64,000 nucleotides of DNA, taken from sequence record PV467748.1; one strand, written 5' to 3'. Source of the DNA: a phage. The translations under genes were made by a program, and so were the position numbers. The number at the start of each line of letters is the position of its first letter. Within the stretch, counting starts at the first letter, position 1. Below are positions 41,990 to 64,000 of the stretch, piece by piece. Under the pieces are notes generated by a model, which was given only the letters and a program-made list of their open reading frames with translations, was not told the DNA's origin and did no database searches.

Positions 41990-42018
41990 GGGAGACTTCG
42001 GTCTCCCATTCTTGTTTC
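41990..42018 (+). terminator. rho-independent terminator GGGAGACTTCGGTCTCCC after gene 23
   Basis: Perfect 7-bp stem with TTCG loop, then ATTCTTGTTT. Confidence 0.65.
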
Positions 42019-42022
42019 TATA

Positions 42023-42289
42023 CTATGCAATCTTAACACGATGGTTGATGATATCACGGAAGTCAATACGATTTTCTTGGATTTTCAGCCAGTTACCAGA
42101 TTTGTCTTTGGTATGGGTAGAGTATTCACCGTTCCACCAGAAGTCGGTAGCATAAGCCATGGCTTCGTATTTCTTAACTAGTGCATTCACTGCATTACCG
42201 TTAGGATTGGAACCATATTTTTCTACCAGGGCTTTGATGTCTTTATCAAGAGCGGAAAGAGTAGTACGAATAAAGTTTAACTTGTTCAT
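42023..42289 (-). CDS. hypothetical protein (antisense gene inside capsid cluster)
   Basis: ORF track 42023..42304 trimmed to ATG (MNKLNF...) 8 nt after GAGGAG; own early promoter upstream. Confidence 0.6.
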   Translation of the reverse strand: MNKLNFIRTTLSALDKDIKALVEKYGSNPNGNAVNALVKKYEAMAYATDFWWNGEYSTHTKDKSGNWLKIQENRIDFRDIINHRVKIA

Positions 42290-42303
42290 TTTTAATCTCC
42301 TCA

Positions 42304-42348
42304 TGTTTTGATAGGTCTATAGTAACATGTGATAACCTTGCTGTAAAC
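42304..42348 (-). promoter_or_regulatory. conserved early promoter/leader element, copy 4
   Basis: GTTTAC-N18-TACTAT-AGACCTATCAAAACA on minus strand, upstream of the 42023..42289 gene. Confidence 0.55.
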
Positions 42349-42354
42349 AACTTT

Positions 42355-42362
42355 TATAAATA
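42355..42362 (+). promoter_or_regulatory. T4 late promoter TATAAATA for gene 24
   Basis: Exact TATAAATA about 29 nt upstream of the gene 24 ATG. Confidence 0.6.
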
Positions 42363-42390
42363 AACATATACCCTCAATAAGGAAAGCGCA

Positions 42391-43674
42391 ATGGCAAAGA
42401 TTAACGAATTACTGCGCGAGTCAACAACTACTTCTAGCAACTCATTGGGTCGCCCTAATCTTGTTGCTTTGACCCGTGCTACAACCAAATTGATTTACCG
42501 TGATATTATTGCTGAACAACGTACTAGCCAGCCTATTGCTGCATTGTATGGTGTCAAATATCTTACTCCTGATAATGAATTTAGCTTCCAAACTGGTGCC
42601 GTTTATGGTGGTGAAGTTGGTTCTAAAGACCGTGAAACTATCCCGGAACTCACAGATAAGGCCCAGGCTATTGCCAAGGGTGAATATTTCAAGTATCAGA
42701 ACATAGTTTATAAGGCTCTTCAAGCAAGCCCACTCGCATCCACTAGCGCTACAGGATTGGCTGATGCTCTTCAAGAAGGTTTAGTGTCATTAACATGTCG
42801 TCTGGTTCCGGACGCTGCTCATACCACTAAATTCGAAGCGAGTGATGTAGAAATCTCTGATGCTGTATTCCAGGTAAATAAATGGAATGCTCCTGTTAAG
42901 ACTCGTAAATTGAAGACTGCTTTGACAGTAGAATTGGCACAGGATATGGAATCAAATGGATTCGACGCCCCTGCATTCTTAGAAGACCTCCTGGCTACAG
43001 TAATGGCAGATGAAATTAATAAAGACGTTCTGCAATCCTTGATTACGGTATCTAAACGTTATAAAGTTACCGGTGTATCTGATAACGGCATCATAGATTT
43101 GACTTATGATAGTGCTCCGGAATCTGCACGTAAACTTTATGAAATTGTTTGTGAGATGAATTCTGAAATCCAGAAAACTACTTCTTATTCTGGTACGTTT
43201 GTTGTGGCTTCAAGTCGTGTGGCTGCAATGCTTGCAGGTTCTGGCTGGTTAAAACATAAACCTGAAGATAATAATTGGCTCCCAGAAACCGCCTATGGGT
43301 ATTTGTTGAATGGATTACCTCTGTTCTGTGACGTTAACAGCCCGTTGGATTATGTTATCGTCGGTGTTAAAGAGAACTATGGTGGTAATGAAGTTGTCGG
43401 TTCTATTTTCTATGCCCCGTATACAGAAGGCCTGGATTTAGACGACCAAGAACACGTTGGCGCTTATAAGGTTATTGTCGACCCGGATTCATTACAGCCT
43501 TCTATTTCTCTGATGGTTCGTTATGCACTGTCCGCTAATCCATACACCGTAGCTAAAGACGATAAAGAAGCTCGTGTTATAGATGCAACTAATATGGATT
43601 TAATGGCGGGCCAGAGTAATATGTCTTATCTGCTTGGTGTTAAACTTCCAGCAATTATTTACGAGGCTGATTAA
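42391..43674 (+). CDS. 24: capsid vertex protein gp24
   Basis: 427 aa as in T4; position after gene 23. Confidence 0.85.
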   Translation: MAKINELLRESTTTSSNSLGRPNLVALTRATTKLIYRDIIAEQRTSQPIAALYGVKYLTPDNEFSFQTGAVYGGEVGSKDRETIPELTDKAQAIAKGEYFKYQNIVYKALQASPLASTSATGLADALQEGLVSLTCRLVPDAAHTTKFEASDVEISDAVFQVNKWNAPVKTRKLKTALTVELAQDMESNGFDAPAFLEDLLATVMADEINKDVLQSLITVSKRYKVTGVSDNGIIDLTYDSAPESARKLYEIVCEMNSEIQKTTSYSGTFVVASSRVAAMLAGSGWLKHKPEDNNWLPETAYGYLLNGLPLFCDVNSPLDYVIVGVKENYGGNEVVGSIFYAPYTEGLDLDDQEHVGAYKVIVDPDSLQPSISLMVRYALSANPYTVAKDDKEARVIDATNMDLMAGQSNMSYLLGVKLPAIIYEAD

Positions 43675-44954
43675 TGTCTAAGATTGTAGACCTAATTAAA
43701 GAATCCACATTGACGGCTGCCAACTCGGTTGGCCGTCCTGCTCTTCTTTCATACACCCAAGCAACTAATAAACGAATCTTTAAAGCCTTAGTTGCTGAAC
43801 AAAAAACAAGTCAACCTGTTGCCGCTCTGTACGGGGTTCGTGTACTTAATCCTGATGACAAAATGACTTATCTTGGTGGCGCTACATTTGCAGGCCAGAT
43901 TGGTATGTCGGAACGTGAAAATATTCCTGAATTTACCGATTCGTCTACAGCTTATGCAGCCGGCGATATGTTCCAGTTTGAAAGTGTAGTGTTTAAAGTT
44001 CTGGAAGCATCTCCTTTCGCCGGAACCACAGAAACTGACCTCGGTGAAGTTATTTCTGAAGCAGTGGCTGCTGGGCATATTCGTATGGTATCAGATGCGG
44101 CTATTACTTCTAAATTCGAACAGGGCCATCCTGAAATTGCTGAAGCAGGCTTCCGTATTGATAAGTGGCAGACTGAAGTTAAATCACGTAAACTGAAAAC
44201 TTCATTGACCGTCGAATTAGCCCAAGATCTAGAATCAAACGGGTTTAATGCTCCTAATTTCGTTGAAAACCTGCTAGGCATTCAAATGGCAGAAGAAATT
44301 AATAAGGACGTATTACAGTCATTAATTACGGTGAGTTCTCGTTTTAAAGTCCAGGGTGTTTCCGAAAAGGGTGTATTGGACCTTACCAACCCACGTTACG
44401 ATAATGCTCAGGACCGTGCTCGTACATTGTATTATTACATGTGTGAGATGAACTCTGCCGTACAACGCCAGACTTCTTTCGCTGGGACTTATGCAGTAGC
44501 TAGTTCTCGTTGTGCCGCTATTCTTGCCGCATCTGGTTGGGTTGAGAAAAAGGAAGACCAAGACGAACTGGCTTACGGTATATTAAAAAATGGCCTGCCT
44601 CTTTATGCCGATATGAATAGTCCGTGTGATTATGTTATTGTTGGTGTAAATGCTCAGATGGGTGAAGGACAGACGGTCGCATCTTTATATTATGCGCCTT
44701 ATACGGAAGGTTTGAATGAGGTTGATGAGGAAGGGGATACTTCAGTAGGTGAATTTAAGGTTATTGTTGACCCGGAAAGCTTACAACCTACAGTAGCATT
44801 GCTTGCTCGTTATGCATTGACTGCAAACCCTTATACCGTCGCTAAGGACGATAAAGAAGCCCGCATTATTGATGGTTCTGATATGGACAAAATGGCTAAT
44901 CAAAGTCAATTGAGTTCTTATCTCGGTGTAAAATTACCACCTTTAGAAAAATAA
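43674..44954 (+). CDS. second gp24-like capsid vertex protein (diverged tandem paralog)
   Basis: 426 aa, alignable along its length to the preceding ORF (shared LAQD.ESNGF.AP.F.E.LL, ALSANPYTVAKDDKEAR.ID). Confidence 0.85.
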   Translation: MSKIVDLIKESTLTAANSVGRPALLSYTQATNKRIFKALVAEQKTSQPVAALYGVRVLNPDDKMTYLGGATFAGQIGMSERENIPEFTDSSTAYAAGDMFQFESVVFKVLEASPFAGTTETDLGEVISEAVAAGHIRMVSDAAITSKFEQGHPEIAEAGFRIDKWQTEVKSRKLKTSLTVELAQDLESNGFNAPNFVENLLGIQMAEEINKDVLQSLITVSSRFKVQGVSEKGVLDLTNPRYDNAQDRARTLYYYMCEMNSAVQRQTSFAGTYAVASSRCAAILAASGWVEKKEDQDELAYGILKNGLPLYADMNSPCDYVIVGVNAQMGEGQTVASLYYAPYTEGLNEVDEEGDTSVGEFKVIVDPESLQPTVALLARYALTANPYTVAKDDKEARIIDGSDMDKMANQSQLSSYLGVKLPPLEK

Positions 44955-44978
44955 AAGGGACCGTGAGGTCCCTTTTTC
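44953..44978. terminator. bidirectional terminator AAAAGGGACCGTGAGGTCCCTTTTT
   Basis: GC stem flanked by A-run and T-run between convergent genes. Confidence 0.7.
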
Positions 44979-44980
44979 AT

Positions 44981-45988
44981 TTATTTGGATACTAGGTCAA
45001 TCCATACTGCTCGTAGGGTATCTTTTACACACTCAACGAGCTGCTTTTTAACTTCAACAGGATTTTCAGCATCAGTTAATTCTAATTCTTCACGGGCAGC
45101 TTCTTCTAAGATATCTTGGACTGTCAAGCCCATTACCTTTCCAAAATCCTTCGGCGATACTTCACCAATCTTACTGATGACGTTGTTAATGCGGTTAACA
45201 GTCACATAATCAGTGAATTGCCACATCAAGTCCATATCGTCTTGGGATAAAACCACTGCAACTTTAATAGGCTTATCAGACTTTTTCTTCTCGCTGAATT
45301 TAGAGTTCTTACATTTAATCGCTACACGATTTCCGTTTGGAAGCCAGATAGGAACATCAGGTTTCAGTACAAAGCCTTCGGCGGTGAATACTTTACCTTC
45401 TACCTTAGGAATAAAATCTGTTGAGTTCGCAATAGTTAGGCCAGCATTATCCACTGCAAAATTATAATCAGGAACAACAGAATCAAAATCATTAGGAAGT
45501 TTAATAAGGTCTTCAAAGCTACCAGTGGCCAGACATGGCGCAACCTTAAACTTATGGATAATACAGAAGGCTTCCATCAATGTATCGGATAGAACAGATT
45601 CTGAGCCATCTTCCTTAGTAACTCGGATATCGAACACATAAAAGTCTTTATCACCGTAATCCACATTCTTCTGGATACCCGGCCCAGCGAATTCGCCGTA
45701 AATTTGATATGACTGATAATTAATCGATTCAATTAGATGTTGAACGGATTTAATAGAATCAGCATAATTCTTTAAAACAATTTCATAACCAAAGAAATCT
45801 TCAGCAGGGAGGATAGGGCCAGTGCGCTTGGCGCATGTGACTGCGTCACGTTCTATGATTAAACTAAAGTTGGTCCCATGAATCTTCTCACGTGCCACCC
45901 ATTCACCACCAGTCAAACCGTTAGTACGGAGTTTTTCGATAAACTTACTGTTGTAGTGGTTTTCGAGACTGCTATATTTCTTGAACAT
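44981..45988 (-). CDS. rnlB: RNA ligase 2 (Rnl2)
   Basis: N-terminus [20 protein letters not shown]...[22 protein letters not shown] matches T4 Rnl2 as recalled, including the KxHGxN nucleotidyltransferase motif. Confidence 0.93.
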
Positions 45989-46102
45989 AAATCACCATAA
46001 TAAATATAATTAAATAGAAGAGCTAGTAGTCTTCTGTCACCAAGCCAAATGGTTTAACGGAAGGACCTAGACCCATTATATCACACCTAAATTTAAAGCA
46101 TA

Positions 46103-46312
46103 TTACTTTGAACCAGAACGCGCTTTGCGCCGAACCTTGTTGTTCAATCTTTTACGATAAACAACCTTTTCTTTCGCTTTAAATTTGGCCTTGGCTTGTT
46201 CTACATCAACCCATGCTTTGGCCATGTCCTTAGCGGTCCCGCCCATTTTTTTAGCAATTTCTATAAAATTCAACCCAGATTCGTGTAAAAAATGTACTTT
46301 AACCTTGTCCAT
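46103..46312 (-). CDS. small basic hypothetical protein
   Basis: ORF track; ATG start; Lys/Arg-rich C-terminus. Confidence 0.5.
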   Translation of the reverse strand: MDKVKVHFLHESGLNFIEIAKKMGGTAKDMAKAWVDVEQAKAKFKAKEKVVYRKRLNNKVRRKARSGSK

Positions 46313-46392
46313 AACAATTCTCTCGTTGAGCCGGTAAAACTCATCTTAACATAGAATTTTTAACTTGTAAACAGGAATTTTGTACTTTAATG

Positions 46393-46412
46393 CAAAATGG
46401 GCCTTGCGGCCC
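46393..46412 (-). terminator. terminator GGGCCGCAAGGCCC + ATTTTG (minus strand) after hoc
   Basis: GC hairpin directly downstream of the hoc stop. Confidence 0.55.
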
Positions 46413-46416
46413 ATAA

Positions 46417-47265
46417 TTAATAAACGTAATCGTATATAATACCAGCTTCTAAAGTGGTGCGATGAATAATTCGACCATTACGAGATTCTTGTACATCAAC
46501 CTCTGGATAGTCGGTAATCATTTTTTGAAGTGTATACCGGTGCAAATAATACGGGCTATCCGGGTCATCTGTTTTCCAGTCTTTGCCTTCAAGAGTCATT
46601 TTCTGGATTTCATCCATAACCCACCAACCGCACCAAATATAAGCTGAATTACGTACTGGCAATGGATGAACGTAAGGTAATTCGCCATCCGGAACCGGTG
46701 CGACTTTAGCCGTGACCGTTACATTACCGGTTTTTGTGACAGTCGCCTGGTTATAATCAGCCGCCGAAACCACAACAGAAACTTCAATAACCTGTGAACC
46801 TTCGGTGCTTGTGTCGATTGTTAGAGTATCCGTGGTGCCAACTACAGGAGAACCGTCTTTCTTCCAAGAATAGGCAAAAGTAGCGCCAGCAGGCGCGCCG
46901 ACTACATCCGCTTTAAAAGAAGCTGGAGTGCCTTCCGGAACATTAATTGATTCTGGGGTTAATGTCACAGAAACACCAGACATAGTTTTATTCTGGATAG
47001 TTAAAGTCGTCTCAGCTTCAGCAGTTTCCGGTTCGCCGTCCGCTGGTGTAGTTGTTGCAACAACTTTAATAGTCTTGCTGCCTGCTGGACCAACAGCAAC
47101 ATAATCCATTGCAGCAGTCACAGAAGATTGAGGAACGCCATCAACGGTCCAGACAAATGATTCAGTACCTTCAGCTGCAGCACCGGAACCGGTCGCAGTG
47201 AAATTGGTTGTTGCTCCAATAACGGCCGTAGCCGCCAAAGGAGAAATATCTACGGTATAAGCCAT
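46417..47265 (-). CDS. hoc: highly immunogenic outer capsid protein Hoc (shortened)
   Basis: N-terminal Ig-like repeats and C-terminal capsid-binding region (GELPYVHPLP...IWCGWWVMDEIQKMT...YYLHRYTLQKM) match T4 Hoc as recalled; 282 vs 376 aa. Confidence 0.85.
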   Translation of the reverse strand: MAYTVDISPLAATAVIGATTNFTATGSGAAAEGTESFVWTVDGVPQSSVTAAMDYVAVGPAGSKTIKVVATTTPADGEPETAEAETTLTIQNKTMSGVSVTLTPESINVPEGTPASFKADVVGAPAGATFAYSWKKDGSPVVGTTDTLTIDTSTEGSQVIEVSVVVSAADYNQATVTKTGNVTVTAKVAPVPDGELPYVHPLPVRNSAYIWCGWWVMDEIQKMTLEGKDWKTDDPDSPYYLHRYTLQKMITDYPEVDVQESRNGRIIHRTTLEAGIIYDYVY

Positions 47266-47274
47266 AATAAACCC

Positions 47275-47946
47275 TTATTTTAAAGTGACAAAAGATGAGT
47301 TACGAGTTTCTCGTACTAGAACAGACCCATTACGATTGATGTAATAAATCAAGCTGAATAGTGTTTGGTGTGCGGTAGGATGTTGGAAAGCAGTTGGACG
47401 TTCTTTCCAATCCGGAGTCTCAGAAATCCATTGGTAAATCCACCAAGGAACAGTGCAATAACCTGGGTTCTTACCGATAAGCAAAAGATTAGGACTGAAG
47501 TTTTCAGGTAAAGAGAATACAGGTTTTTCAGATTCAACAACCTTGGCTACAGCCTTTTTGAATTTCTCTTCGTCAAATGGAACATCCTCTTCGATAATCT
47601 CTACCTTAGGAAGTTCGGCTACCTCTATTACTTCAACAACTGCCTCAGGAGCATCGAACAACAGGGTTGCTTCTTCTTTAGCTGGTTCTACACCTTCGAT
47701 AAAATCATTATCACCAGTGAGTTCGTCAGCAGCATCAATCAAATCAGAAATAGACAACCCGTCTGTTTCCGGAAGTGGTTCGTCAGCCAAGGCTTTAAGG
47801 CCTTCAGAGATATCGATAATCAAATTATCAAACGAACGGGTTTTCTTAAGTTTTAAACCGAACTGTTCGCCGTATTCGATTAACTTAGCTTTAGCTTCTT
47901 TTTTGTCTTTGAGTGCACGAAGCTCTTCAATATATTGAGTATCCAT
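47275..47946 (-). CDS. inh: Inh-like protein (inhibitor of prohead protease), by synteny
   Basis: Size 223 aa (T4 225) and position between hoc and uvsW; identity not verified. Confidence 0.55.
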   Translation of the reverse strand: MDTQYIEELRALKDKKEAKAKLIEYGEQFGLKLKKTRSFDNLIIDISEGLKALADEPLPETDGLSISDLIDAADELTGDNDFIEGVEPAKEEATLLFDAPEAVVEVIEVAELPKVEIIEEDVPFDEEKFKKAVAKVVESEKPVFSLPENFSPNLLLIGKNPGYCTVPWWIYQWISETPDWKERPTAFQHPTAHQTLFSLIYYINRNGSVLVRETRNSSFVTLK

Positions 47947-47965
47947 AATTAGTCTCTTGTTGGTG

Positions 47966-47987
47966 TATAAATATAACTATATTTATA
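47966..47987. promoter_or_regulatory. divergent late promoters: TATAAATA (+) for uvsW and TATAAATA (-) for inh
   Basis: Forward TATAAATA near 47966 and forward TATTTATA near 47980. Confidence 0.5.
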
Positions 47988-53551: not shown

Positions 53552-54032
53552 TAAAGAGATTTCTATTCCTAAATTGGGTCTTAAACACCAGAAATTGGTT
53601 AAAGATGAAAAAGACCCTTACAAGGCTCTTCACATATTAATGAATTCCATTTATAAAGATTTATCCGCGGCAGAGACTGATTTTGCCGCTCTTCACCTTT
53701 TAGAATTCAATGGAAGATTAAAAAGTAAAGTAACCAAAGACGGGTTTACTTATAACTTAAATGACCTTTATATTTGCCAACGACTTGAATTCCAATTCCA
53801 AGGTAAAACATTTAAATTTAAATCACATGAACCATTTCAAACATTTGGGCCTGTTGATAGTGTATTACAGTCCCTTTACCTTGGTGATGATGTACCAGAT
53901 TTTCTGGATATGCCTGCCTTTGTTGCTACATGGGCCGACGATATAACTTCTACTATAGCTATCCCTGGTCCTAATGGTCCTATCAAAGGATTGCTTAAAA
54001 TCATGGATATCTTAAATGAAGAACGAATCTAA
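53505..54032 (+). CDS. 28: baseplate hub distal subunit gp28, by synteny
   Basis: ORF track 53463 trimmed to internal ATG with GAAGG RBS giving 175 aa (T4 177); start uncertain. Confidence 0.6.
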
Positions 54033-55752
54033 TCAGAATAGTTTTCGTCGCAATAAACTGATTGAAGAAATGGCTCCTCAGCGTCGTGCTGAGGCGCTAG
54101 CCCAAACTCAGAACGACGAATTAGGAAATATATCAGATGTTTTATCCGATTCCCAGGCGGCGTCTGAATTGCTCTCTGAAGTGGTTGAGACAAAGTCCAA
54201 TCAGATTATTAGTTCTGTAGACCGAGTAGATAAAAGCGTCCAAGATGTTGTTGCTGGGACAGAATTAACGGCTGAAGCTATATCAGAACAAACTCAACAA
54301 TCTAAAGCTCTTTCGGATGCACTAAACGAAAAGATTAATAAGCTTTCTAATATGTTAGAGGCTAAATTTTCTGGTATTTCTATTCCACCGGAAGGGAGTT
54401 CATTAAAGGTTATTGAAGACTCTATTCCGGAAGAACCTAAGGCCGAAACTCCTAAAGTTCCTGCTGTTGTTGAAGATATTCTTCCGCCTGAAGATAATAA
54501 ACCTGACGCTGAATTTATGCCCGAGCCTCCTAAAAATTCAGATGAAGGTAAAGAAGGTGATAAGACTTCTCTTTCTGATAAAATTGAAGCCCTTACTAAA
54601 ATAACTGAAAAGGGATTTAAAGCTTCTATAGGCGTCGCTGATAGAATTTCAGGCATGCTTTTTAAGTATACCATTACCGCTGCCGCTGAAGCTGCTAAAC
54701 TCGCAGCAGGTTTAGTCCTTTTAATATTTGGTATAGATGCCATTCGCGTATACTTCCAATATTTCATGGACCAATTTGAGTCAGGGTGGAAAGAATTTAA
54801 CGATAAGTTTAAAGAGTGGGGACCATTACTTGAAGGGCTAATGACATGGGCCAAGAATGCTGAAGCCATGTTTAGTGAAGGAAACTGGTTAGGTCTGGCT
54901 GAAGCTATTATTCGTGGTATGGTTAATCTTACCAAAAATATGGCACAACTTTTAATGCTTGGTATTTCTAAGTTGATTTCTGCTATTTTAAGTAAAATAC
55001 CTGGTATGGGTGATTTAGCTGAAAACGTAGAGGCTTCTGCTTTAATGTCATATCAGCAAAATACCGGAGCCACTTTGGACGATGAAGACCAAACTAAAGT
55101 GGCCAAGTACCATGATAGACGTTCAGCCGAGGCTTTAGAAACAGCCGAGAAAATGAATAAGAAGTATAAGGATAAACCTGAGCTTATAAACCAGGCAGAG
55201 AAATACGGTAATCTTACTAAAGAACAAGCCGACCAATTACGCGCAGGTGGAATTGACACAAGCTTCCGTGACCTCCCTGAAGAAGAACGTTTAGAGTATT
55301 TCAAGAAACGTGATAAAGCTCAGGCTGATATTATTCGTTTGACACAAACCGCTGATAATATAATGAAGCCAGATTCTAAAGATATCGAAAATGCTAAAGC
55401 ATTTAAAGCTGATATCGAGAAACAATTGGCCGACCCTATTATGGCTAAAGGTGGGGCACCGAAAGACCTTAATATCCAGCAATTACTCGATAAGATGAAT
55501 AAATCTTTAGAGAAATTTAATGAAGCTGAAAAGCCTAAACCTGCTTCTGTAGCGGAATCTCCTGAAAATACCCAGGTTAAAAAGGTTGATGAGCAAATGA
55601 GAGCAAAGGAAAATGCTAAATATAGTCAGCAAGCTCCAACTCAAATAAATCAGCAAACGAATATCAAGAAAACGAGTAAGACAAGCTATAATATGCCTCC
55701 ACAGTCCTCTACTCCTGCTCCTGGTATGCGTCAAGCTACTAAAGTTAATTAG
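54016..55752 (+). CDS. 29: tail length tape-measure / baseplate hub protein gp29
   Basis: 578 aa (T4 590), helical low-complexity sequence; synteny. Confidence 0.8.
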   Translation: MKNESNQNSFRRNKLIEEMAPQRRAEALAQTQNDELGNISDVLSDSQAASELLSEVVETKSNQIISSVDRVDKSVQDVVAGTELTAEAISEQTQQSKALSDALNEKINKLSNMLEAKFSGISIPPEGSSLKVIEDSIPEEPKAETPKVPAVVEDILPPEDNKPDAEFMPEPPKNSDEGKEGDKTSLSDKIEALTKITEKGFKASIGVADRISGMLFKYTITAAAEAAKLAAGLVLLIFGIDAIRVYFQYFMDQFESGWKEFNDKFKEWGPLLEGLMTWAKNAEAMFSEGNWLGLAEAIIRGMVNLTKNMAQLLMLGISKLISAILSKIPGMGDLAENVEASALMSYQQNTGATLDDEDQTKVAKYHDRRSAEALETAEKMNKKYKDKPELINQAEKYGNLTKEQADQLRAGGIDTSFRDLPEEERLEYFKKRDKAQADIIRLTQTADNIMKPDSKDIENAKAFKADIEKQLADPIMAKGGAPKDLNIQQLLDKMNKSLEKFNEAEKPKPASVAESPENTQVKKVDEQMRAKENAKYSQQAPTQINQQTNIKKTSKTSYNMPPQSSTPAPGMRQATKVN

Positions 55753-55760
55753 GATTAATA

Positions 55761-56849
55761 ATGAAAGTAAAAGAACTTGACTTTGATGTAGCCTCCTTGT
55801 TTAAAGGAGGTTCAAAGACCTCCGCAGGTCAATCTAAAACACCTCCAATAAAAACCACGGTAACCGCTCAGTATCCAGCTGAGCGGGCTTCAGGTAATGA
55901 TACCTCAACCGATATGGTATTAAACGACCTCTATAAAAATGGATTGCTTTTTACTGCATATAATTTTAGTTCTCGTGTATCTCCGGATTTGCGTAACGAC
56001 CGTTCGAGTCAAATGACTAAAAAGTTCTCAAGTGCAGCCAGCAAATTAACAGGTAATAGTGGAACATATAGTGCTGTTAAAAACTTGTTTAGTAATAACT
56101 CTAAGGGCGTTAAATTTGATAGCCAAGCCTTAGCCAATATTCTTTTACCTCGTTCTAAATCTGATGTGGATTCCGTGTCACATAAATTTAACGATGTAGG
56201 CGAATCATTGATTACTAAAGGTGGTGGTACTGCTACAGGTATTTTAAGTAACGTTGCAAGTACTGCGGTATTTGGTGCGTTGGAATCTGTGACTAATGGC
56301 GTAATGGCTGATTCAGGTGAACAGATATACACCACTGCCCGTAGTATGTACGCCGGCCCGGATAACCGTACTAAGGTATTTACTTGGGAAATGACTCCAC
56401 GAAACGCCCAAGACCTTATCCAGATTATTAAAATATATGAAATCTTTAATTACTATTCTTATGGTGAAACCGGCAACTCAGCCTTCGCAGGCGAATTAAA
56501 AGATAAGATTGATACTTGGTACCGTTCTACATTTAAAAAAGAAGCTATTGACAAGTTTGATGGTAAGCTATTAGGGGAAAGTATTACAAGCTTCCTTTCT
56601 AATGTTATTGTGGTAAGTAACCCTACCATTTGGTATATCCGAAACTTTGGCGATAGCAGTTCATATGATGGTCGTGAAGATATTTTCGGCCCGTGTCAAA
56701 TCCAAAGTATCCGTTTCGATAAAACTCCGGACGGGCATTTTAACGGATTGGCTATTGCTCCTAACTTACCATCTACATTTAGTTTAGAAGTTACTTTCCG
56801 TGAAATCATTACTTTGAACCGTGGCTCACTTTATACGGAAGGATTCTAA
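55761..56849 (+). CDS. 48: baseplate tail-tube junction protein gp48
   Basis: 362 aa (T4 364); synteny. Confidence 0.8.
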   Translation: MKVKELDFDVASLFKGGSKTSAGQSKTPPIKTTVTAQYPAERASGNDTSTDMVLNDLYKNGLLFTAYNFSSRVSPDLRNDRSSQMTKKFSSAASKLTGNSGTYSAVKNLFSNNSKGVKFDSQALANILLPRSKSDVDSVSHKFNDVGESLITKGGGTATGILSNVASTAVFGALESVTNGVMADSGEQIYTTARSMYAGPDNRTKVFTWEMTPRNAQDLIQIIKIYEIFNYYSYGETGNSAFAGELKDKIDTWYRSTFKKEAIDKFDGKLLGESITSFLSNVIVVSNPTIWYIRNFGDSSSYDGREDIFGPCQIQSIRFDKTPDGHFNGLAIAPNLPSTFSLEVTFREIITLNRGSLYTEGF

Positions 56850-57778
56850 TGTATACTTTACAAGAATTTCAGAACCAGGCAATTAATATTGACCTACAGA
56901 GGAATAACCTGTTTAGTGTAGTATTTGCTACAGTTCCTTCTTCTAAATCCCAAGCGCTCCTCGACCAGTTCGGTGGAGCTTTATTTAACAATATCCCATT
57001 GAATAGCGATTTGTTTGGTATTACACAAGGAGAGTTGACCCAAGGTGTTACGACATTAGTGACAGCGGGCACTCAGAAGTTGATTCGTAAGTCAGGCATA
57101 AGTAAATATCTGATTGGAGCTATGTCATCCAGGGTTGTGCAGAGCTTACTAGGAGAGTTTGAAGTAGGTACATATCTGATGGATTTTTTCAATATGGCCT
57201 ATCCTACGGCAGGTCTTTTAGTCCACGCCGTTAAAATCCCAGATAATACTTTGAGCTATGAAATGGATTTGAACCACAACTCGCCTAACATCAAAATTAC
57301 CGGAAGAGAATATTCTCCATTGGTATTAAGCTTCCGTATGGATTCTGAAGCTGCTAACTACCGTGCTTTTAATGATTGGGTCAATAGTGTTCAAGACCCT
57401 ATTACACAATTAAGAGCATTGCCTGAGGATGTTGAAGCCGACATTCAAGTCAACCTTCATTCTCGTAATGGATTGCCACATACGGTAGTAATGCTTAATG
57501 GTTGTGTTCCAATGAGCGTATCTTCCCCGGAATTATCTTACGACGGTGATAACCAAATTGCTTCGTTTGATGTTACATTTGCTTATAGAAGTGTACAGAC
57601 AGGCGCAGTCGGTAAACAGGCTGCTTACGAATGGCTGGAAGATAAGATTATTAAAGGCGTCGCTGGGCTAAGTGAGAATAATTCACTGAGTTCTTCAGTA
57701 GCTAAATTAAGTCGACTTTCAGGAGCGGCTAGTGGATTAACAGGATTGGTTAATAGTAGAATATCGAGGTTGCTATAG
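56849..57778 (+). CDS. 54: baseplate tail-tube initiator gp54
   Basis: 309 aa (T4 320); synteny. Confidence 0.8.
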   Translation: MYTLQEFQNQAINIDLQRNNLFSVVFATVPSSKSQALLDQFGGALFNNIPLNSDLFGITQGELTQGVTTLVTAGTQKLIRKSGISKYLIGAMSSRVVQSLLGEFEVGTYLMDFFNMAYPTAGLLVHAVKIPDNTLSYEMDLNHNSPNIKITGREYSPLVLSFRMDSEAANYRAFNDWVNSVQDPITQLRALPEDVEADIQVNLHSRNGLPHTVVMLNGCVPMSVSSPELSYDGDNQIASFDVTFAYRSVQTGAVGKQAAYEWLEDKIIKGVAGLSENNSLSSSVAKLSRLSGAASGLTGLVNSRISRLL

Positions 57779-57785
57779 CAAAAAA

Positions 57786-57810
57786 GGAGAGCGTACGCTC
57801 TCCTTTAGGG
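57786..57810. terminator. terminator palindrome GGAGAGCGTACGCTCTCC (A-run upstream, TTT downstream)
   Basis: Perfect 18-nt palindrome between convergent gene 54 and the 57813..58103 gene; stronger for the minus strand. Confidence 0.65.
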
Positions 57811-57812
57811 GG

Positions 57813-58103
57813 TTATTTACGGAACGAAATGAAACCTGCTGCAGTCATTAGTGGTTGCTTTTTATCAAACACCGTAACTGAAATAGGAGCTTCAGATTCG
57901 AGTTGTCCTGTCACTACACCGTTAAAAATGTTTTCGGTTTGTTCTGGATGAGAAAAATTCTCAACAGGCCGGATATCAAACTGTTTGTCTTCACCGAAAA
58001 CTCGACGTAATTCATTACCCACTGCACTGTCAAACTCTTCAGAAGCAGGGATAACGTTTTCAACCACCAGTTCTTGACCATTAAAACGGAATGCAGATTT
58101 CAT
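57813..58103 (-). CDS. hypothetical protein downstream of alt
   Basis: ORF track; ATG start; own early-type promoter upstream. Confidence 0.55.
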   Translation of the reverse strand: MKSAFRFNGQELVVENVIPASEEFDSAVGNELRRVFGEDKQFDIRPVENFSHPEQTENIFNGVVTGQLESEAPISVTVFDKKQPLMTAAGFISFRK

Positions 58104-58130
58104 AATGTTCTCCTCATGTTTGTGTAAGGT

Positions 58131-58160
58131 AATAGTACCACATCCTTGTGGTGTTGTAAA
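58131..58160 (-). promoter_or_regulatory. T4 early-type promoter (GTTTAC-N18-TACTAT)
   Basis: Minus strand GTTTACAACACCACAAGGATGTGGTACTAT between the altA stop and the 57813..58103 gene. Confidence 0.5.
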
Positions 58161-60284
58161 CTACATTTTGAATTTATTTGATAAAGAAGAGATATCCAAA
58201 GACGCTGCAAGGATTTCCATAGCTTCGTTGCTTTCAGAAACGGATTCATTAACCAAGAATTGACTAAATCCATCCATCAGGCGAACTTCACCAGTTTCCA
58301 TCAAATGGTCACCATCGTAAACAGATTCGCTGAGCTCTGAAGGAGGTGTTACGGTAGCTTCCATAAGGTATTTGTGAGATACTCTATCATTCATGGCAAA
58401 AGCCGCTACTTTATCAACCTTCAACAATAATCCGCGCGGAAGGATAATTTCTGCTTCTTCGGCATATTCTGTAAGGTCACCAGGAGCGATAACTTTAACT
58501 GCTTCAGCACCTCGAATAACCATACCAATTTCAGCAATTCTATCTGCAGGACCTTCAGGTGCAATTGGATTACCAAACTCGTCTTCTTCCCATTCTACCT
58601 CTTCGTCATCGACTTCACCCACATCAGATGAACTACCACTAGCCAATTTAAACAACTCATCAGCTGAGGACAAAGAACCTTCACCACCAACAAAAACGGC
58701 TTGGTTGTCGAGGGCCATATAATTTTTACCGAATTCACCAAAGATGTTAGGCTTTAATGAGGCTGACACAAAGTTCTTAAAGTAAAATGTTTTGTTATCG
58801 ATATTATGGCGCAGAATTTTGTATGGCAAATCCTGACCACGATACAAAATAGTACCCTTAGGAAGTTTAATACCCTTAGTAAATGCTGAGTCTAAATCCT
58901 TAATCAATTTAATAGCCGTTGTATTGTTTTCGGATTCAGGTTTACCTAAAAGGAATAAGTTCATAGGAGCATATTCAGCCGCGCAATATTCAATAATAGC
59001 ATTGCTTTCGTCTTTGGTTAGGTCCTTAGGTTTAATGAGCTCGCCTGAATAAGCATATGCATCACTAATAGAATCGTTAACCAGTTTATAAACTGCTTCC
59101 ATAGCGAAAGCAATTCGAGAGGCCTTTTCTGAAGGGGAACCCTTAAAACGGGTACTCAGGTTATTAACAATTTTCTTAATAATATCCAGACTATTGGTTG
59201 TATTGATTTGCGAAAGACCACTTAAAAGTCTATCGACTTCTGTATTAAAAAATGCCATATTATTAGAGTAAATTTCAAACCCTTGTTTATCTCTATTAGC
59301 ATAATTTAGTTTAAATTTACTATCAGTCATTAAAGCGTGTGTGAGAGCAATAGTGTATCTAAAGTTGGCAAGGTCCTCGCTCTTAGATTTAAACTGAGAA
59401 GCCTGGCGCATTTTAGTAATAGCACCTTTTTTAAAGTTCTGGCTAATCTGTTCAATACCTTCATTCTCAGGGCCTTCAGCCGTGTGAACAGGTACAGAAG
59501 CTTCAAACTCATTATAAACCTGCAATTCTTTAGGGGACAAAGTTTCAGGTTCGGCAGTAGAATACTGCGCCGCTGCTGCCATACGACGGGAAATCTTAGT
59601 ACGGGTAATGACAGCCTTATCGGTACGTTTCTCTTCAACTTGTGCAATAGATGCCGCTACTGCTTCAACCTTACTTACGGCCTGGCCGGTTTTCTTAGAA
59701 ACATACACTTCGCCAACTTTAGACTCAACTTTAGTATAAAGATCGGCATTAATTTCAGGCATACCCTTGATATCTTCAATATTAGCACCACGACGTACTA
59801 AAAGAACGTAGGTATGTTTTCCGCTGAATTGGAACATGTCGTCAACAACTTTAAACTTACCACCGGTACGAGCCATAGCCAAACGAGCTAATACGCGCTG
59901 AACGGTAGGGCCCTTACCTTTCATTTTCTTAGTAGGGAAACGGAACAGAACTGCGTCCATTTTAAGTTTGTTTATTTGTTCGTATATGGTATCGAAAATG
60001 GTGTTCAGTGTACCAAGTGGATCGGTACCCAACCCGCCCTTGAGTTCTGCCGGAGCGCCTTTAGCTGACAAACTCATCAAAATAACATGAACATATTTGT
60101 CGCCCGGCTTAACCATTTTAATAGCGTCTCCTTGAGACGCATAAGATACCATACGAGCAACCAGATTATCATTACCTGGTGCTTGGATAGAGAAAATCTG
60201 TGGAATACCGGAACCCGGTTTAAGATTTGTTACTGGATAGTTTTTAGCGGAATCACTATCAAAAACCTCATTTAAATTTTCCAT
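58161..60284 (-). CDS. alt: Alt-like mono-ADP-ribosyltransferase, paralog A (packaged and injected in T4)
   Basis: 707 aa (T4 Alt 682); conserved N-terminal about 230 aa; C-terminal R-S-E motifs (YRGQ, SASL, EAE). Confidence 0.85.
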   Translation of the reverse strand: MENLNEVFDSDSAKNYPVTNLKPGSGIPQIFSIQAPGNDNLVARMVSYASQGDAIKMVKPGDKYVHVILMSLSAKGAPAELKGGLGTDPLGTLNTIFDTIYEQINKLKMDAVLFRFPTKKMKGKGPTVQRVLARLAMARTGGKFKVVDDMFQFSGKHTYVLLVRRGANIEDIKGMPEINADLYTKVESKVGEVYVSKKTGQAVSKVEAVAASIAQVEEKRTDKAVITRTKISRRMAAAAQYSTAEPETLSPKELQVYNEFEASVPVHTAEGPENEGIEQISQNFKKGAITKMRQASQFKSKSEDLANFRYTIALTHALMTDSKFKLNYANRDKQGFEIYSNNMAFFNTEVDRLLSGLSQINTTNSLDIIKKIVNNLSTRFKGSPSEKASRIAFAMEAVYKLVNDSISDAYAYSGELIKPKDLTKDESNAIIEYCAAEYAPMNLFLLGKPESENNTTAIKLIKDLDSAFTKGIKLPKGTILYRGQDLPYKILRHNIDNKTFYFKNFVSASLKPNIFGEFGKNYMALDNQAVFVGGEGSLSSADELFKLASGSSSDVGEVDDEEVEWEEDEFGNPIAPEGPADRIAEIGMVIRGAEAVKVIAPGDLTEYAEEAEIILPRGLLLKVDKVAAFAMNDRVSHKYLMEATVTPPSELSESVYDGDHLMETGEVRLMDGFSQFLVNESVSESNEAMEILAASLDISSLSNKFKM

Positions 60285-60287
60285 TAT

Positions 60288-62372
60288 TTACCCTTGGATG
60301 AATTTTTCTGGGATGTCATAGAGGTCTATGCATGAAGCCAAAAGAGGCAGTACATCAAACCGGGTAGATTTAACAAATGAATCAAAAGATACAGGGCTTT
60401 CGGAAGTATCGAAGTCATCTTGGTATACAACCAATTCACCAGTTTCCATTAGTACGTCACCATCATACACTACAGATTCTTGAAGCTCATCTGTTGTCAT
60501 AACTTCAGCTTGAATGAGTTTTGTATTATTAGATGTTGTTCCATCATTATTAGAAGCATCTGTTATTTTATTAACTTTGACCATTAATCCACGTGGTAGA
60601 ATAACTTCAGCTTCAGTTGCTATTCCGAGATTTCCTGGATATACAACATTAACTTTATGAGCACCGTCAATTGCCCATCCTATTTGAGCTTTAACGTAAT
60701 CAGGATTTTCCTTATACGCCCTTATTTCATTAGGGTTAATAGTTATTCCTTCTTCATTTTTATCGACTGTCAATTCATTGCGAACTTCCGGTTCTAAAAG
60801 ACCGATACCAGCGTGTGTAACACCAAATCGTCCAAAAATGATAGGGGTTAAAGAAGTAGATACAAAATTTCTGAAATAGAACACTTTATTTTTAACTAGT
60901 GCTTCGTATATAGGAGCAGTCATACTCTGGGCACGATAAACTGTGATGCCTTCTGGTATACGGTCGCCGTTTTCAAAAGCTGAATCTAAATTATTTATCG
61001 CAGATTCAATTTCTTTTTCACTCATTACCTCATATCGTTCTGGATTGTAGCGACCTAAAAGAAGATTATTGATGTCAGTATATCCTGAACCACAATATTC
61101 TCTGATACCACGCTTTTGTGATGGAGTATATTTAGAACCCTCACGAGCAATAGTAATATCAACCATAATACCGCCACCTACACCAGCAAAACTATAAACA
61201 CATTTTTTAATGAACTTGGTCTTAGTGGCTTTCCACTTGGACTCGGTTAATTCATTCCAGACGTCGTCAGGTTGACCTTTACGAGTTTTGTTATGCTTGG
61301 CCAACCATTTGGCTTTGTATTCTTCGAAAATGGTATTAATAGCAGAGGCATATTTTTCTAGAGCTTTAACAGATGTCAAAGGTTCGTTTTTGATGGCCGC
61401 AAGAATTTTATCTTTAATTTTCTCTTGGATTTCACCTATACCGTGAAGAGGAAACATTTTGTAATCGTAATGCAATTCTTCAGCAGTGCCTTCAGCTATT
61501 ATATTAGCAACCTTATTTTTAGCCGCAGGAGAATTGTTATTAGTAACCATTTCCTGGGCCTCAGGGATTAATGGAGCTGTTGCTGGTTTATTAAAATCCA
61601 CTGCAGTAGCTTCATATTTCTTAAACAGTTCACTTTCATTACGATAAGATTCTAACGATTGACTTGCTGCAATAGCACGACGCGAAATCTTAGTCTTGGT
61701 TATAACCATTTTATCAGTGCGACGTTCTTCAACTTTAGCAATACTGCCGGCAATAGCAGTTTCTTTAGTAACCTGCACACCTTCTTTTTTAGAAATATAA
61801 ACTTCACCGACATCAGAATCTACCTTAGTGTATAATTCGGAATTAATTCCAGGCATACCTTTGATATCTTCGATATCAGCTTGTTTACGAACTACTAGAA
61901 TATAAGTATGTTTACCAGTAAATTGGTACATAGCCGGAACTACTTTGAAGCGTCCACCTGTTTTTTGAGTTGCCAAACGTTGGATAATCCGTTGGACGAT
62001 AGGTCCTTGCCCTTTCATTTTCTTGGTTGGAAAACGGAACATCACAGCATCCATACGAAGCTTTTTAACTTGTTCGAATACTACGTCGAAAATGGTATTA
62101 ATAGCATCAATAGGAGTAGGGCCTAAGCCGCCTTTAAGTTCGGCTGGAGAACCTTTAGCTGAAAGGCTCATAAGGATAATGTGGGCGTATTTATCACCTA
62201 ATTTAACCTGTTTAATAGCATCGCCTTCAGAGGCATAAGATACCATACGAGCAACCAATTGGGATTCAGCATCGCCAATCTTCCAAATCTGGGGTACTTT
62301 AAGTTTTGGGTTTAAGTTTACAGTAGGCAGGGTGCCTTCGGACTCAAACACCTCATTCAATTGTTCGGTCAT
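60288..62372 (-). CDS. Alt-like mono-ADP-ribosyltransferase, paralog B
   Basis: 694 aa; N-terminal region highly similar to paralog A, divergent middle; R-S-E motifs (YRAQ, STSL, EAE). Confidence 0.85.
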   Translation of the reverse strand: MTEQLNEVFESEGTLPTVNLNPKLKVPQIWKIGDAESQLVARMVSYASEGDAIKQVKLGDKYAHIILMSLSAKGSPAELKGGLGPTPIDAINTIFDVVFEQVKKLRMDAVMFRFPTKKMKGQGPIVQRIIQRLATQKTGGRFKVVPAMYQFTGKHTYILVVRKQADIEDIKGMPGINSELYTKVDSDVGEVYISKKEGVQVTKETAIAGSIAKVEERRTDKMVITKTKISRRAIAASQSLESYRNESELFKKYEATAVDFNKPATAPLIPEAQEMVTNNNSPAAKNKVANIIAEGTAEELHYDYKMFPLHGIGEIQEKIKDKILAAIKNEPLTSVKALEKYASAINTIFEEYKAKWLAKHNKTRKGQPDDVWNELTESKWKATKTKFIKKCVYSFAGVGGGIMVDITIAREGSKYTPSQKRGIREYCGSGYTDINNLLLGRYNPERYEVMSEKEIESAINNLDSAFENGDRIPEGITVYRAQSMTAPIYEALVKNKVFYFRNFVSTSLTPIIFGRFGVTHAGIGLLEPEVRNELTVDKNEEGITINPNEIRAYKENPDYVKAQIGWAIDGAHKVNVVYPGNLGIATEAEVILPRGLMVKVNKITDASNNDGTTSNNTKLIQAEVMTTDELQESVVYDGDVLMETGELVVYQDDFDTSESPVSFDSFVKSTRFDVLPLLASCIDLYDIPEKFIQG

Positions 62373-62380
62373 AATAATTC

Positions 62381-64000
62381 CTATTTAAATAAATTTGATA
62401 ATTTTTCCATAGAATCTTCGTAAAGGATTTTATCATAACTTTCAAATGAAAGTACTGTGCTATACGAATTTTCTTCTGTGATTTGTTCAGAACCAATAAC
62501 TTCGCACTCCACCAATACGTACTTACCTATAGAACCCATAAGACCTTTAGAAGCACCATACACTTTATTAATTTTAAGCATTACGCCTCTAGGAAGAATA
62601 ACCTCAGTTTCTGTAGACCAATTTGCCAAATTACCTGGTACGATAACTTTAATTTTGTCCGCGCCTTTAATAATTAATCCAAGCTTAATTGTCTCTCTAG
62701 CACTTCCGGTTGCACTTTTAATTGTGTCTTCTAGATTATTATCTATATCGCTAGAAAGAGCTTCGGGATCTAAATTTGATTGAGCGTGTCCCATTTCGCC
62801 AAAAATATTAGGAGCTAATGAGGTAGATGCGAAAATAGGAAGATACATTACTTTATGTTTTATTGAATTCAAAGCCATTTCGGTGGGCATTATTTGAGAT
62901 CGATACACTATAGTTCCTTTAGGGAGCTTTGTACCGTTTTCAAAAGCAGAATCCATATCACCAATCATTTTTATCATTTCATCAGTAGTATCTGTTTTAC
63001 CTAATAAAAAGTTGTTAATGTGATTATATCCACCGCGAGTGTACTTTTTGATAGCCTCTTCTTGAGGTTTAGTTAAATTGGGATTGTCATCTATTTTAAA
63101 CAAAGGTTGTATAGATTTGGTATAGACTGCTACTAATGATTTTATTACTTCTTTTATTTTAGATTCTCTAGCCCATGTACCTTTAACTGAACCATCTAAA
63201 AGAGATGCGGCAACTAATCTAAGGACGTCCACATGTGTTTTACCTGATTTTAAAGCATTTATAACACCATTAGATTTATCTAAAGAATCTGATGATTCTA
63301 AAGCAAACTTTATATCTTTAATTAATTTAAGCCTATGCTCATCTATTTCAAACGACGGATTAACACCATTAAAAATATAATCTAAATATTCTGCCATTTC
63401 TTTAGAAGTATCTTTTAATACTTTAATACCGGCTGACGCTATTTGGCTTTCTTTAGAACCTTCAGAAGAATGCACTGAACTAGTAATAGATAAATCGGAG
63501 TAAACTTTTTTATGTTCTTCTGAAAATTTATTCAATCCTGACGGTTCTGATGTTGAGTATAGTGCATTTATTGCGGCTCGTTTAGAAACCTTTGTTTTGG
63601 TTATAACCATTTTATCTGAACGAGATTTTTCTATTTCATCTATAGATTTAGCTATGGCTTCTAGTTTAGTAACATCTTCACCTGTTTTCTTTGAAACATA
63701 TACATCACCAACTTCAGATTCAACTTTAGTATATAACTCAGCATTAATATTTGGGATGCCTTTTATAGATTCTATATTTTTATTTTTACGGTAGATAAAA
63801 ACATATGAATGTTTACCACTGAATTGGTACAAGGCGTCAAGGACCTTGAATTGTCCACCCGCTCTAGAAGCTATCAATTTGGCTAGGACTCTCTGTACGG
63901 TTTTTTCCTGCCCTTTCATTTTCTTGGTTGGAAAACGGAACATCACAGCATCCATACGAAGAGCTTTAATTTGTTCATAGACTATATCAAATATGGAACG
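62381..64000 (-). CDS. Alt-like mono-ADP-ribosyltransferase, paralog C (N-terminus beyond window)
   Basis: Reading frame stays open to the window edge (RSIFDIVYEQIKALRMDAVMFRFPTKK... aligns with about residue 95 of paralogs A and B); R-S-E motifs (YRSQ, STSL, ETE). Confidence 0.8.
   Translation of the reverse strand, partial: RSIFDIVYEQIKALRMDAVMFRFPTKKMKGQEKTVQRVLAKLIASRAGGQFKVLDALYQFSGKHSYVFIYRKNKNIESIKGIPNINAELYTKVESEVGDVYVSKKTGEDVTKLEAIAKSIDEIEKSRSDKMVITKTKVSKRAAINALYSTSEPSGLNKFSEEHKKVYSDLSITSSVHSSEGSKESQIASAGIKVLKDTSKEMAEYLDYIFNGVNPSFEIDEHRLKLIKDIKFALESSDSLDKSNGVINALKSGKTHVDVLRLVAASLLDGSVKGTWARESKIKEVIKSLVAVYTKSIQPLFKIDDNPNLTKPQEEAIKKYTRGGYNHINNFLLGKTDTTDEMIKMIGDMDSAFENGTKLPKGTIVYRSQIMPTEMALNSIKHKVMYLPIFASTSLAPNIFGEMGHAQSNLDPEALSSDIDNNLEDTIKSATGSARETIKLGLIIKGADKIKVIVPGNLANWSTETEVILPRGVMLKINKVYGASKGLMGSIGKYVLVECEVIGSEQITEENSYSTVLSFESYDKILYEDSMEKLSNLFK

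Follow-up and report, generated by a model that had tools for sequence, protein, structure and literature searches.

Alt is the textbook enzyme that is carried in the phage head and fired into the cell with the DNA, and it has been studied only as the single protein of T4. What does a tandem array of three alt genes amount to: repeated doses of one activity, or an injected set of enzymes with different host targets? We examined this question in sequence record PV467748.1, a stretch of phage DNA of 64,000 nucleotides (hereafter the window), which ends in three consecutive minus-strand genes, namely A (707 aa, 58161..60284) and B (694 aa, 60288..62372), both taken from the listing of open reading frames (ORFs), and C (at least 539 aa, 62381..64000), an open frame whose 5' end is cut by the window edge. 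The region is likely to be the alt locus of a Dhakavirus-type T4-like phage, encoding three paralogous arginine-specific (E-x-E) mono-ADP-ribosyltransferases of the Alt family. Each paralog consists of a putative N-terminal propeptide of 6-7 residues ending in L-N-E, a basic domain of about 230 aa, a helical region of about 185 aa, a C3/VIP2-like ADP-ribosyltransferase (ART) domain, and a putative C-terminal propeptide after a second L/I-x-E motif. The frame of C is open at the window edge (64000) and reaches its stop at 62381-62383, giving 539 codons plus the stop; since its ortholog in phage WG01 has 631 aa, about 92 N-terminal residues of C should lie beyond position 64000.

An earlier note on this DNA, drawn from the sequence alone, had described the genes as three diverged Alt-like R-S-E mono-ADP-ribosyltransferases in tandem, and profile searches agreed. 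Matches to PF03496 (ADPrib_exo_Tox; gathering cut-off 23.4 bits) scored 63.3 bits for A, 125.5 bits for B and 57.7 bits for C. PHROG 802, annotated as Alt-like RNA polymerase ADP-ribosyltransferase, matched A (E = 2.5e-250), B (E = 3.4e-264) and C (E = 2.3e-155) from end to end (residues 1-707, 1-693 and 2-512, respectively), and the Pfam family PF26846 (Tevenvirinae_ADPRT) was precomputed on all 120 homologs, near-identical cluster representatives included. The motifs quoted in the earlier note (YRGQ/YRAQ/YRSQ, SASL/STSL/STSL, and EAE/EAE/ETE before ILPRG) were all present, and the R/S/E-x-E motifs of the three proteins aligned column for column, A carrying S-A-S where B and C carry S-T-S. 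In a family alignment of 79 sequences, the motif serine and both glutamates were invariant and the arginine was at least 90% conserved, and phmmer aligned B with iota toxin Ia, its arginine falling on R295 and its E-x-E on E378/E380. The ART domain of A spans aa 422-653 (58326..59021, minus strand), with R482, S507 and E610-A-E612, and ends at the motif L-S-E653; that of B spans aa 415-632 (60477..61130, minus strand), with R480, S505-T-S, E587-A-E589 and L-Q-E632; and that of C lies at 62474..63076 (minus strand), with R367, S392-T-S, E464-T-E466 and I-T-E509 in the numbering of the truncated frame. The E577A mutation kills T4 Alt activity (PMC11404850); in the RefSeq translation of T4 Alt, E-x-E is formed by E574 and E576, with Val at position 577, so the published numbering appears to be offset and the mutated residue appears to be the second Glu of E-x-E.

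The genomic setting pointed to the same assignment. Homologs of T4 gp29, gp48 and gp54 lie before A on the other strand, and an alt.-3 homolog sits between gp54 and A; because these genes adjoin A, the region corresponds to the T4 alt locus. As in T4, the alt genes follow gene 54 and alt.-3 in the window, precede DNA ligase (gene 30) in WG01, and are read from the strand opposite the baseplate genes. The ligase side falls past position 64000 in our phage, and the ligase gene is present in the colinear WG01, QL01, JS10 and T4 loci; in WG01, the three alt genes are followed by an alt.1-like ORF and then by the DNA ligase gene.

A sequence search of the PDB returned no solved Alt structure. We made an AlphaFold model of A alone from the 79-sequence alignment (predicted local distance difference test score, pLDDT, 75.6; predicted template modelling score, pTM, 0.70). 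The model comprised an alpha/beta N-terminal domain (N-domain; about residues 15-230) that was well folded (pLDDT about 75-89), an all-helical region (233-470), a beta-rich ART core (480-645) and a low-confidence tail. A Foldseek search of this model against the PDB retrieved only ART toxins of the R-S-E clade (Vis, Certhrax, C3bot, CDTa and VIP2; E = 4e-7 to 1e-4, probability 1.0), with a template modelling score (TM) to target of 0.54-0.69 for single-domain targets and of about 0.3 for the larger multi-domain Certhrax, CDTa and VIP2. R-S-E clade toxins (C3 exoenzyme, VIP2, iota Ia, CDTa, Vis and Certhrax) resemble the Alt paralogs in catalytic fold and motifs at only 12-18% sequence identity, and the E-x-E form is common to the Alt paralogs and the arginine-modifying members of the clade. 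Unlike these toxins, Alt proteins have a phage-specific N-domain, a helical region and propeptides removed by a protease, and they are delivered by phage DNA ejection rather than through a toxin translocon.

One feature of the catalytic half was found in A alone among the three. An insertion of 61 aa (aa 518-578; 58551..58733, minus strand) lies between the STS/phosphate-nicotinamide (PN) loop region and the strand before the ADP-ribosylating turn-turn (ARTT) loop; it is acidic (16 D/E vs 2 K/R, isoelectric point (pI) 4.05), includes the run DDEEVEWEEDEF, and is for the most part predicted to be disordered, with pLDDT below 50 over 518-539, 548-565 and 573-578. It was missing from B and C in the alignments, and a shorter form occurred in A-type proteins of Tequatroviruses, including the downstream Alt of phage G4507 (G4507_dn).

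Divergence between the paralogs was uneven along their length. The N-terminal part of about 235 aa was 62-67% identical among A, B and C, the following region of about 185 aa only 12-24% identical and essentially unalignable, the ART domain 36-41% and the C-terminal tail 17-36%, in keeping with the conserved N-terminus of about 230 aa and divergent remainder reported in the earlier note. In A, these parts correspond to the basic alpha/beta N-domain (aa 7-235, pI 9.7; 59580..60266), which ends at a KISRR hinge, and the variable all-helical middle region (aa 236-421; 59022..59579), with 12-24% identity between paralog types; the basic conserved N-domain of B covers aa 8-233 (61674..62351), all on the minus strand. 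The claim that the genes carry different catalytic modules needed correction: the sequences are divergent, but the ART domains are homologous members of one family, and the most divergent part is the helical region before them. Synonymous divergence (dS) between paralogs was 1.5-2.9, which means that synonymous sites are saturated. With ART identity of no more than 36-41% and this saturation, the array is not a recent duplication, and a recent tandem duplication was ruled out on these values; the catalytic regions are not near-identical, which the earlier note had named as one way in which its reading could fail.

Each of the three copies nonetheless appears to be maintained. WG01 belongs to the genus Dhakavirus of the Tevenvirinae, and the window phage is a Dhakavirus-like T4 relative with 92% DNA identity to it. 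Against WG01, the ratio of nonsynonymous to synonymous divergence (omega) was 0.027 for A, 0.057 for B and 0.064 for C over the whole gene, and 0, 0.046 and 0.026, respectively, over the ART domain; the ART domain of C combined a dS of 1.10 with a nonsynonymous divergence (dN) of 0.028, and the helical middle region of A was 100% conserved at a dS of 0.14. Because omega is low throughout, A, B and C have all been kept by purifying selection. These values bear on the possibility that B alone works as an enzyme and that A and C are decaying duplicates or structural internal head proteins, a course for which the decay of a second T4 copy to alt.-1/alt.-2 and the JS10-type phages without C could be cited. 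All three reading frames are intact and keep R/S/E-x-E, however, ART-domain omega is 0-0.05, and the catalytic half of A is 100% conserved across the window, WG01 and QL01 despite silent changes, so that we regard this possibility as highly improbable. Pseudogenes or inactive copies were ruled out by the intact catalytic residues and the ART-domain omega, and the loss of R-S-E residues in two of the three proteins, a further way in which the earlier reading could fail, was not seen, as no catalytic residue is lost.

We compared the proteins with the loci of T4, Tequatrovirus G4507, JS10, QL01, Shewanella phage Thanatos-2 and Aeromonas phage 31.2, and the three genes were assigned to distinct lineages. 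B is the ortholog of T4 Alt (NP_049811): its ART domain was 63-64% and its central region 35% identical to T4 Alt, compared with 36-37% and 12-17% to A and C, and the two proteins have their length class, the R/S-T-S/E-x-E motifs and two terminal protease motifs in common. The N-domain of T4 Alt was 42-46% identical to those of the window. A is the ortholog of the second, downstream Alt gene of many Tequatroviruses, such as gp214 (685 aa) of vB_EcoM_G4507, a phage with two full-length Alt genes. A was 58% identical to this protein in the ART domain, 46% in the central region and 67% in the C-terminal tail, against 36-39% (ART) and 12-18% (central region) to B and T4 Alt; both genes lie directly downstream of alt and upstream of alt.-3. 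They differ in that A has a longer acidic insertion and S-A-S for S-T-S, and in that their N-domains are only 46% identical, each resembling instead the other Alt copy of its own genome. C represents a rare third lineage, limited to WG01-like and SP18-like phages: among 1206 Alt-bearing phage records, its catalytic half was found at 88-89% identity in 8 records and at 58% in 6 SP18-like records.

These assignments also qualify the statement, made in the earlier note, that T4 has a single Alt protein, which does not give the full picture. In the T4 record, alt.-1/alt.-2 carry the annotation of an old duplication that took in the first part of alt, and because these ORFs sit where A sits, we read T4 as having lost an A-type copy; the remnant covers the N-terminal part only, so its A-type origin rests on position. 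The window phage has two extra full-length paralogs, where T4 has only this decayed remnant.

The domains of these proteins have separate histories. In a tree of ART domains, B grouped with T4 Alt and A with G4507_dn, and C stood alone. The tree of N-domains grouped by phage instead, with 62-67% identity among the Dhakavirus A, B and C, 68% between the two G4507 copies, 82% within the Thanatos pair and 57% within the Aeromonas pair, compared with 42-46% between Dhakavirus and Tequatrovirus. The conflict between the two trees indicates that the catalytic half follows paralog type and the N-domain follows phage lineage.

Chimeric genes placed the junction at the KISRR hinge. A 684-aa protein of phage Bp7 (P0006) joins an N-domain 92% identical to that of A to a remainder that is 68% identical to T4 Alt, 49% to Dhakavirus B and 28% to A; its ARTT loop has a single substitution relative to T4 Alt in the 14 residues before an identical E-M-E. 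In QL01, whose gene order is A, another type (681 aa) and B, the middle gene (4628-6673 of the retrieved locus) was 100% identical in DNA to WG01 A (5001-7124 of the retrieved locus) over the first 360 nt and about 80% identical to nt 720, and it was unrelated past the KISRR hinge. QL01 A showed the reverse pattern against WG01 A, differing (70-96% identity) over the first 360 nt, and the first 180 nt of window A were identical to both WG01 A and the QL01 middle gene. The QL01 middle gene and WG01 A are the product of recent recombination between non-allelic alt copies. QL01 and Bp7 differ from the window in having another third paralog type, built on an A-type N-domain, and in 23 pairs among the 79 family proteins, N-domain identity was 80% or more and ART-domain identity under 45%. 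The N-domain coding regions of the window form direct DNA repeats (71-83% identical, spaced 2094 and 1901 nt) that offer a substrate for unequal and non-allelic recombination. Together, the chimeras show that catalytic halves move between N-domains, joined at a fixed KISRR hinge. Ongoing gene conversion that homogenises the three N-domains was ruled out for recent times by their saturated dS; because synonymous sites are saturated, the N-domains are not being homogenised now, and their similarity is kept by constraint.

We tentatively suggest, as a reading to which we give somewhat less than an even chance, that the alt locus is a cassette system. The N-domain (PF26846) would serve as a portable adaptor for head incorporation and ejection that is matched to the phage's own head, and catalytic halves from several old lineages (A, B, C and the QL01/Bp7 types at the least) would be shuffled at KISRR, so that each phage would inject an ART set of its own, aimed at different host targets, perhaps with defence proteins among them. 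Polymorphic toxins, polyvalent proteins and MuF-fused head effectors (PMC5512222, PMC9503650) likewise combine a constant N-terminal part, bound to the vehicle, with C-terminal enzymes that are exchanged. The alt array differs from these systems in that no MuF match was found and the exchanged parts seen all belong to one ART family. Every partner of the Alt N-domain with a Pfam match was an ART; four proteins of atypical length matched no Pfam family, two of them with degenerate ART motifs. The gaps of 3 and 8 nt between the genes leave no room for immunity genes. In its C-terminal families, lack of immunity genes and lack of MuF or portal fusion, the alt array therefore falls outside polymorphic toxin and polyvalent systems and resembles them in logic only; Iyer et al. 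state explicitly that genuine polyvalent proteins do not include Alt-family ARTs.

The N-domain is probably a head-incorporation module. Its pI was 9.3-9.7, compared with 4.7-5.6 for the remainder of the protein (A, B, WG01 C and T4 Alt), and this charge split suggests contact with DNA or with acidic core proteins in the head. We also considered that the N-domain might be a second functional domain, enzymatic or DNA-/protein-binding, such as a diverged GNAT-like acyltransferase, acting in the host instead of serving delivery, in which case this activity would account for its conservation. Pfam and NCBIfam searches gave no other family for it, and neither a sequence profile nor a strong structural match indicated a GNAT (Gcn5-related N-acetyltransferase) fold with its acyl-CoA motif A; we hold this alternative to be quite unlikely.

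The distribution of the N-domain was narrow at the level of sequence. A profile search of 1.84 billion representative proteins found it in 72, its start never lying beyond residue 22; nearly all of these were ART proteins 600-712 aa long. With only 72 matches, all but a few of them ARTs, an adaptor that sequence searches would detect on non-ART cargo was rejected. Four metagenomic proteins (P0169, P0170, P0172 and P0173) combined the first 150-170 or so N-domain residues with atypical C-terminal parts, one of them being 1142 aa long; ART motifs were degenerate in P0169, P0170 and P0173, and none was recognisable in P0172 (541 aa). A Foldseek search of the A model against the predicted viral structures of BFVD ranked Alt homologs first for the N-domain fold, and the fold was also matched (E = 1e-5 to 1e-3, TM about 0.45) in large uncharacterised proteins of unrelated myoviruses, namely Ackermannviridae-like, Vibrio and Agrobacterium phages, including Dickeya RC-2014, Erwinia phiEa2809, Vibrio VP-1 and Kuja, and Atu_ph07. 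Zeta-toxin, deaminase or ParB/Srx domains appear in the names of some of these proteins, from Atu_ph07 and uncultured Caudovirales phages. Judging from these predicted structures, the N-domain adaptor might carry non-ART cargo in other phages.

Processing motifs were found at both ends of all three proteins. T4 Alt is cleaved by gp21 at ITE-6 and LTE-619 (PMC5694885), and its residues 7-619 amount to 68.2 kDa, matching the published value (PMC5694885). L-N-E occurred at residues 4-7 in A, B and C, the missing N-terminus of C being supplied by WG01, and L-S-E (A), L-Q-E (B) and I-T-E (C) occupied the alignment column of T4 LTE-619. The putative N-terminal propeptide of A (MENLNE; 60267..60284) ends in an L-x-E gp21 motif and aligns with MELITE of T4 Alt, and that of B is MTEQLNE (62352-62372). 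Putative C-terminal propeptides follow the second motif in A (aa 654-707, 58164..58325, aligned with the 63-residue piece that T4 Alt loses after LTE-619), B (60291-60476) and, in a short form, C (62384-62473), all on the minus strand. The gp21 motifs at both ends are the best available indication that A, B and C may pass through the prohead.

The arrangement of the genes was consistent with joint expression. The B stop codon lies 3 nt upstream of the A ATG (TAA-ata-ATG), and the C stop codon 8 nt upstream of the B ATG (TAG-gaattatt-ATG). The T4 late-promoter octamer TATAAATA was not found on the minus strand within 58-64 kb, and an internal late promoter for A or B was rejected on this ground and because TTTAAATA before B lies too near the ATG to leave space for a ribosome-binding site. 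In WG01, a hairpin followed by CATAAATA lies about 25 nt upstream of the C ATG. Given the 3- and 8-nt spacers, the lack of an internal promoter and the terminator-like hairpin after alt.-3, we infer one late transcript for C, B and A.

The following course of events would fit these observations. The three genes would be read as one late transcript, and their products would enter the prohead core by way of their N-terminal part and be trimmed by gp21 at both ends. By orthology with T4 Alt, A, B and C would then be carried in the head and injected with the DNA, and the injected enzymes would move ADP-ribose from NAD+ onto arginines of host proteins. B, the ortholog of T4 Alt, would act as T4 Alt does, on RNA polymerase alpha and other proteins. 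For delivery by the N-domain, for packaging and injection of all three proteins and for distinct targets, the evidence is indirect: the gp21 motifs conserved at both ends, the ARTT-loop residues specific to each type, and the exchange of catalytic halves on an unchanging N-domain. The locus itself would evolve as a cassette, with an N-domain matched to the phage lineage and catalytic halves exchanged at KISRR.

Substrate recognition was considered through the regions that differ most between types. In C3-like and binary toxins, recognition of the substrate depends in part on the ARTT loop, which precedes the catalytic Glu. The third residue before E-x-E, aligned with the Tyr before E378 in iota Ia, was Y/F in A, I/P in B, W in C and S in the QL01 middle type, and it was kept within each type across genera; the helical region before the ART domain and the loop after S-T-S were likewise type-specific. 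A and C are old lineages, each conserved on its own, and because their helical regions and ARTT loops differ, they would most likely have target sets that are different or only partly overlapping.

The opposite reading is that of redundancy or dosage, in which A, B and C would share nearly all their host targets (RNA polymerase alpha and the usual Alt substrates) and would be kept to raise the injected dose or as a backup against host factors that block or reverse one variant. T4 Alt is described as promiscuous, modifying many proteins, and all three paralogs have the same Arg-specific E-x-E chemistry. Copy number also varies among close relatives (two in JS10, three in WG01 and QL01), so that no single extra copy is indispensable. 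Nevertheless, the ART domains are too dissimilar (36-41% identity), with type-specific ARTT- and PN-loop sequences, to fit this reading easily; strong purifying selection has conserved each type across genera, as expected of distinct functions, and the 61-aa acidic insertion is confined to A. On balance, we consider redundancy unlikely and favour partly or wholly distinct targets.

Several points weigh against the proposed course of events. Capsid targeting in T4 has been attributed to short N-terminal peptides (PMC5694885). In the literature searched, we found no published evidence that A or C is in the virion, cleaved or injected, and no proteome of a phage with multiple Alt proteins; a single Alt has been detected in virions of Morganella phage MP1. 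The late promoter falls beyond the window and, in WG01, matches at just 7 of 8 positions. According to Nolan et al. (PMC1524935), relatives of T4 show poor conservation of the late motif at its first T. Since T4 Alt is promiscuous, divergent sequences need not mean disjoint targets. Finally, the clustering of N-domains by lineage reflects older exchanges or constraint, not ongoing homogenisation of the three copies.

The array itself is not new, as three-gene alt arrays are already annotated in public genomes of close relatives. The 5.8-kb segment was colinear and 91.6-92.2% identical with seven records of six distinct phages, namely WG01 (GenBank and RefSeq), PSD2002, E33, PSD9, LQ5 and ABTNLS3. 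These WG01-like arrays resemble that of the window in their order A-B-C and in gene sizes, and WG01 gp199-201 (RefSeq NC_031928; 707/693/631 aa) are each annotated as Alt-like RNA polymerase ADP-ribosyltransferase; several of the seven records name the three genes either Alt-like or ADP-ribosyltransferase. Paralogous alt duplications were described in 2006 in 44RR (ORF187c/188c), RB49 (ORF183c) and T4 (PMC1524935), and three Alt-like genes are known in Acinetobacter phage ZZ1, together with alt duplications in Ac42, JS98 and Bp7 (PMC4177764). In 44RR, RB49, ZZ1, Ac42, JS98, Bp7 and QL01, the tandem paralogs occupy the same locus as in the window, but the sets of paralogs differ; in ZZ1, unlike in the window, one alt copy is split and the genes are inverted (PMC4177764). 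Tandem alt copies are widespread, with 1748 N-domain matches in 1202 phage records. In the literature searched, we found no functional comparison of alt paralogs and no description of domain-wise incongruence or hinge chimeras, and a search on the characterisation of 'Alt-like' proteins and on PF26846 gave no match.

The genes are thus ordinary members of a known family, and the remaining interest lies in the idea of a shuffled injected effector set. If it is true that the paralogs of phages with two or three copies each modify different host proteins, the first seconds of infection would involve a customised set of injected enzymes, and differences in copy number and type (JS10, WG01, QL01 and Bp7) could affect host range or the evasion of defence, which is relevant as Dhakaviruses are candidates for phage therapy of E. 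coli. For the loading of foreign proteins into T4-type heads, the N-domain, bounded by its hinge, would be a natural choice of tag.

Divergence from WG01 was unevenly distributed along the array. DNA identity fell from A (90.5-100%, mostly 95-100%; about 97% overall) through B (85-95%; about 92% overall) to C (80-89%; about 85% overall). At the protein level, identity was 99.4% between A and WG01 gp199 (dS 0.14), 95.8% for B (dS 0.36) and 90% for C (dS 0.81). The flanking baseplate genes were mostly 92-100% identical, with one 200-nt bin of 87% at the gp54/alt.-3 boundary. This uneven divergence is a sign of mosaic ancestry. The C of the window is the most divergent allele of its type among the phage records and family proteins retrieved (88-90% to the best match), and it appears to have come from a more distant relative. 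Over the compared stretch (54000-64000), the gp29 region was 98-100% identical to WG01, and positions 56000-56600 were about 92% identical.

The alt cluster is closed by the alt.-3 homolog (96 aa; 57813..58103, minus strand), which is annotated as alt.-3 at the syntenic site in JS10 and T4. The terminator-like hairpin 3' of it (57806-57783, minus strand) has a 10 bp stem and a T run. A promoter-like site upstream of this gene, GTTTACA-17 nt-TACTAT with TG (58160-58132), resembles T4 early promoters. Because it has its own promoter-like site and hairpin, the alt.-3 homolog may be transcribed apart from the alt genes. An Rfam scan of 57-64 kb gave no matches. Over the whole window, the late-promoter octamer occurred 16 times, compared with 7.7 expected, and 11 of these occurrences lay on the plus strand between 28 and 48 kb (28322-47973), a cluster that fits a block of late structural genes at 28-48 kb.

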